Of a stretch of DNA of 64,000 nt, positions 19,784 through 20,170 are shown one piece after another. Each line of letters begins with the position of its first letter. The stretch's first letter is position 1. A program made the position numbers and the translations under genes. The DNA comes from Escherichia coli (GTDB lineage Bacteria; Pseudomonadota; Gammaproteobacteria; Enterobacterales; Enterobacteriaceae). Where the stretch lies: NCBI RefSeq assembly GCF_051903065.1, contig NZ_CP178438.1; one strand, 5' to 3'. A model generated the notes under the pieces. The model did not search any database, had not been told where the DNA came from, and worked only from the letters and a program-made list of their open reading frames with translations.

Positions 19784-20170
19784 ATGCGAAAAAGCCTGTT
19801 AGCTATTCTTGCAGTCTCCTCGTTGGTATTCAGTTCGGCGTCGTTTGCCGCTGATCTTGAAGACAATATGGAAACCCTCAACGACAATTTAAAAGTGGTC
19901 GAAAAAGCCGATAACGCGGCGCAAGTCAAAGACGCGTTAACGAAGATGCGCGCCGCAGCGCTGGATGCGCAAAAAGCAACGCCGCCGAAGCTGGAAGGAA
20001 AATCGCCAGACAGCCCGGAAATGAAAGACTTCCGCCACGGTTTCGACATTCTGGTCGGTCAGATTGACGACGCGCTGAAGCTGGCAAATGAAGGTAAAGT
20101 AAAAGAAGCGCAGGCTGCTGCAGAGCAACTGAAAACGACCCGCAATTCATATCACAAGAAGTATCGTTAA
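19784..20170 (+). CDS. cybC: soluble cytochrome b562
   Basis: 128-aa ORF with signal peptide and [15 protein letters not shown] four-helix-bundle sequence; intact here. Confidence 0.9.

Follow-up and report, generated by a model that had tools for sequence, protein, structure and literature searches.

Escherichia coli cybC is intact in a 64,000-nucleotide genomic window and retains the 26 bp missing from the K-12 pseudogene

Does the cytochrome b562 gene cybC of Escherichia coli, when found in a newly read stretch of genome, represent a normal gene or a relic? The question arises at this locus from the reference strain itself. In the curated MG1655 record (NC_000913.3), cybC (b4236, 4459488..4459855) is listed as a pseudogene, in agreement with the first-pass annotation of the DNA analysed here. 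A disruption of K-12 cybC has been in print since 1993 (Trower 1993, in the form in which PMC13041623 cites it), and the Keio cybC knockout serves as a pseudogene control (PMC6945024). We examined cybC in a stretch of 64,000 nucleotides of an E. coli genome (contig NZ_CP178438.1), referred to below as the window. We conclude that the window almost certainly carries a normal, intact orthologue of E. coli cybC, which would make an exported heme-b one-electron carrier. An intact cybC and the K-12 lesion are both already known, and neither is presented here as a discovery.

The first-pass annotation had claimed a full 128-aa precursor with a signal peptide. This claim holds: the ORF is found exactly at the bounds it gave (Table 1), and the encoded protein is full length by comparison with both Pfam and PDB. 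The match to Pfam PF07361 (Cytochrom_B562) scores 119.3 bits (E 1.3e-34), where the curated cut-off is 30, and covers the profile end to end, positions 1-102 of 102. Likewise, residues 23-128 align gap-free with the mature 106-residue chain of PDB 1apc/256b/1qpu, 102 of the 106 residues being identical, and Met7 and His102 are both present, aligned to the equivalent positions of 1apc/256b. Residues 1-22 look like a Sec signal peptide, with a charged N-terminus, a hydrophobic core and an S-F-A end, and this peptide stops exactly where the solved mature chain starts. With 96% of its residues identical to those of the solved chains 1apc/256b/1qpu and no gaps, the mature protein is expected to fold as a four-helix bundle.

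Table 1. Features of the cybC locus, in window positions
Feature	Position	Strand	Remarks
Imperfect palindromic dispersed repeat, ~125 nt	19640..19764		in the pmbA-cybC spacer, just ahead of the ribosome-binding site of cybC
Ribosome-binding site AAGGAAG	19771-19777	+	read from the sequence; ~8 nt ahead of the cybC ATG
26 bp absent from K-12, GTGAGCAATGCGAAAAAGCCTGTTAG	19777..19802	+	from alignments with K-12 BZKR3G40 and MG1655
cybC CDS	19784..20170	+	ATG-to-TAA ORF, 128 codons + TAA; precursor of soluble cytochrome b562
Signal peptide, 22 codons	19784..19849	+	predicted cleavage after Ala22; solved mature chains 1apc/256b begin at residue 23
Mature cytochrome b562, 106 aa	19850..20167	+	predicted apo mass 11724 Da
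Heme axial ligand Met7 codon	19868-19870	+	mature numbering
Heme axial ligand His102 codon	20153-20155	+	mature numbering
Hairpin, 14-bp stem + 4-nt loop	20179..20210		lies between cybC and nrdG, which converge

The surroundings of the ORF are those of cybC. The gene order yjgA-pmbA-cybC-nrdG-nrdD is common to the window, K-12, S51, REL606 and E110019, and the orthologous position of cybC, pmbA (also named tldE) - cybC - nrdG - nrdD, is matched. The ribosome-binding site is conserved in the alignment with B, K-12 and E110019. Moreover, the exact 128-aa sequence is already public as cytochrome b562 on at least 1000 contigs. Judged from its sequence, the ORF is a real gene and not a chance ORF.

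Together these features point to a familiar route to the product. Translation would start at the ATG at 19784, behind AAGGAAG, and the 128-aa precursor would be exported via the Sec pathway. Cleavage after Ala22 would then leave a 106-aa periplasmic four-helix-bundle apoprotein, which would hold one heme b non-covalently, with Met7 and His102 as its ligands, so that the product would be a small soluble periplasmic one-electron carrier. Export, heme binding and expression are taken here from established knowledge of b562 and from published papers, and not from the window itself.

We compared the window with E. coli B, as the first-pass annotation had proposed, and with other intact copies. REL606 carries an intact cybC of 387 bp in the same place, between pmbA and nrdG (L005, 12746-13132; protein WP_001232240.1), and the two proteins are 97% identical. 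Like the window, REL606 encodes a 128-aa precursor with Met7 and His102; the two have the same ribosome-binding site and do not differ over the 44 bp that precede the ATG. The 22-aa signal peptide is identical in the window, REL606 and E110019. The mature chains differ at four positions, at which the window has V17, G50, S100 and K103 whereas B has I, D, A and Q, and the predicted apo mass of the B protein is 11780 Da as against 11724 Da. The mature CybC of REL606 is the sequence of PDB 256b, so the same four changes (V17I, G50D, S100A and K103Q, window to PDB) separate the window protein from that structure. Asp50 of the crystallised protein, which is Gly50 here, presumably sits in the loop between helices 2 and 3.

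Three of these four sites, in precursor numbering V39I, G72D and S122A, are reported natural substitutions, and mature b562 was detected by mass spectrometry in clinical strains (PMC6561927). The fourth, K125Q, is variable among the strains that we aligned. The best match among genomes is S51 (NZ_CP015995.1, protein WP_001232247.1), whose DNA is 100% identical over 614 bases, with no difference from the window; the RefSeq annotation of this identical stretch is cybC. The source of S51 is poultry meat from Switzerland, and the window probably derives from this strain or one closely related to it.

An intact frame might nevertheless belong to a silent gene, cryptic for want of a working promoter, in which case intact would not mean functional. 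We consider this very unlikely. Such a reading would fit our failure to find a sigma-70-like promoter in 19550-20300, but the scan was a crude match to a simple consensus. It would also fit the palindromic repeat that fills most of the upstream spacer, but REL606 has a comparable spacer with identical proximal upstream sequence, and B strains make b562: native b562 co-purifies from the B-lineage expression strains BL21/T7 Express and contaminates preparations of anti-BRIL Fab (PMC13041623), and cybC is listed among those whose expression is high in REL606 compared with MG1655 (PMC3446290). The ORF, furthermore, stays open in more than 5000 genomes. We would thus not take the missing promoter call as a sign of silence, because cybC is expressed in B strains, whose upstream sequence is the same.

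We also compared the window with K-12. The K-12 cybC' (b4236) has the same locus and flanks as the window, and the 176 bp upstream of its deletion are identical. Alignment shows that 26 bp are missing in K-12, a gap that takes away the start codon, the spacer lying between it and the ribosome-binding site, all of codons 2-6 and one nucleotide of codon 7. The K-12 junction joins AAAAAAGGAA directly to CTATTCTT; the window lacks this junction and has the 26 bp. Unlike the window, K-12 cybC' therefore lacks both the ATG and the N-terminal portion of the signal peptide, and the 121 codons left to it encode a single difference, Gly72 in the window versus Asp in K-12. An identical intact gene in K-12, the result that the first-pass annotation had named as the one to overturn its claim, was not seen. 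We found no microhomology beside the 26-bp deletion and therefore propose no mechanism for it.

These data also bear on the reading that the window copy is a pseudogene of the K-12 type, or otherwise damaged, and had been misread earlier. Its support goes no further than the pseudogene status of the locus in MG1655, and we hold it to be extremely improbable: the window cybC is intact because the 26 bp that K-12 has lost are present, the frame is unbroken from ATG to TAA, and the Pfam and PDB matches show a full-length protein. There is just as little chance that the true gene is the 136-aa antisense ORF overlapping cybC (19639..20049, minus strand), which appears in the mechanical ORF list but matches no Pfam family even with the E threshold relaxed to 1, crosses the palindromic repeat and faces a well-characterised protein on the plus strand.

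The truncated K-12 copy is treated differently by different annotations. In K-12 derivatives PGAP calls it a 121-aa "cytochrome b562" CDS (WP_023649327.1), whereas curated MG1655 has a pseudogene; the loci compared were K-12 BZKR3G40 (L001, 1679-2044) and MG1655 (L003, 5489-5856). The CDS called by PGAP begins at an ATT start codon 2 nt past the ribosome-binding site, without the charged start of the signal peptide.

How common each state of cybC is can be read from the complete E. coli genomes. The 614-base stretch that runs from the stop codon of pmbA to that of nrdG (19601-20214) has a match in 5425 of 5426 genomes. A 97-base probe, at a coverage of at least 80%, shows the start region of cybC to be kept in 5068 of 5423 genomes, a count that covers this region only, so that a few of these genomes may be damaged elsewhere in the gene. 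Genomes failing the probe align to it only from its position 40 onwards, where the deletion has just ended. Conversely, a 40-base probe with the K-12 junction at its middle, which is unable to seed in intact cybC, finds the junction in exactly 355 of the 5426 genomes, all at 99% identity or more, and 355 is also the difference between 5423 and 5068. An 80-base query over the same junction was discarded as non-discriminating, its flanking pieces being joined in intact genomes. All 355 junction-bearing genomes are labelled "cybC: cytochrome b562" under the match.

We sampled 45 of the 355 junction records, and none evidently falls outside K-12. The majority carry the name of a K-12 strain or derivative or are marked as laboratory material; among them are MG1655, W3110, DH1, MC4100, AB1157, NCM3722, O16:H48 isolates, and laboratory-evolved or transconjugant strains. 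The remaining records have genome sizes like that of K-12, with source labels that are uninformative or read "Homo sapiens". Given the junction count and the K-12 type of the sampled records, the 26-bp deletion looks to be a mutation private to the K-12 lineage, and intact cybC is the wild type. The pseudogene state would thus be a peculiarity of a laboratory lineage and not a common polymorphism. For annotators, cybC in the window can be called as a normal gene, and the window itself does not belong to the K-12 lineage. The suggestion of the first-pass annotation that this strain "may retain a functional copy" is therefore sound as regards an intact copy, judging by its sequence, but nothing about such a copy is unusual in a species in which the great majority of genomes keep the start region.

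Two further observations come from the 614-base search. The allele itself is uncommon, only 13 of the 5425 records being at least 99% identical, though the exact protein is widespread. In NZ_OY754853.1 (H30) only query bases 261-614 are matched, split over two sites, which suggests an interrupted cybC, perhaps through an insertion sequence or a rearrangement; this would be independent damage outside K-12.

The spacer between pmbA and cybC varies among strains. The palindromic repeat within it is predicted to fold as RNA at -62.1 kcal/mol (z -8.8) and is dispersed: E. coli genomes have a median of 3 detectable copies, the maximum being 6. At the pmbA-cybC site the repeat is present in ~3770 complete genomes (~70%), including K-12 and B, and absent from ~1650 (~30%). 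The spacer measures 183 bp in the window, 182 bp in REL606 and 54 bp in E110019, which is without the repeat; the boundaries of the insertion relative to E110019 were read by eye and are approximate, and the MAFFT gap between the 183-bp and 54-bp spacers was poorly placed. The window holds no other copies of the palindrome, the element is unannotated in MG1655, and no Rfam family matched 19400-20400 at an E threshold of 1.

ERIC/IRU elements are imperfect palindromes of ~127 bp with a conserved core, dispersed in intergenic regions. The core of the repeat resembles the ERIC/IRU core but aligns with that of the ERIC primers only with several indels, so we give the element no family name. The palindrome might alter cybC transcription or mRNA stability and, separately, the Gly50/Ser100/Lys103 allele could differ from the B protein in redox or partner properties; we regard these ideas as unlikely. 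If the palindrome did affect cybC, levels of b562 would vary systematically between lineages.

Just past the pmbA stop lies a G+C-rich hairpin (19609-19624) with a T-run on the minus strand only (GCGCGGCAGGTCGCGC then CAGTTTTTTT). By its sequence it would be terminator-like for transcription arriving from the cybC side rather than from pmbA. This hairpin is kept in E110019, in which the palindromic repeat is lacking.

A terminator scan returned three terminator-like matches, none of them convincing for cybC. At the other end of the gene, the hairpin between the convergent stops has no strong T-run after it on either strand and was missed by this simple scan because of that. It folds at -23.3 kcal/mol (z -6.2), is conserved in K-12, and probably acts for both cybC and nrdG as a transcript-end or terminator structure.
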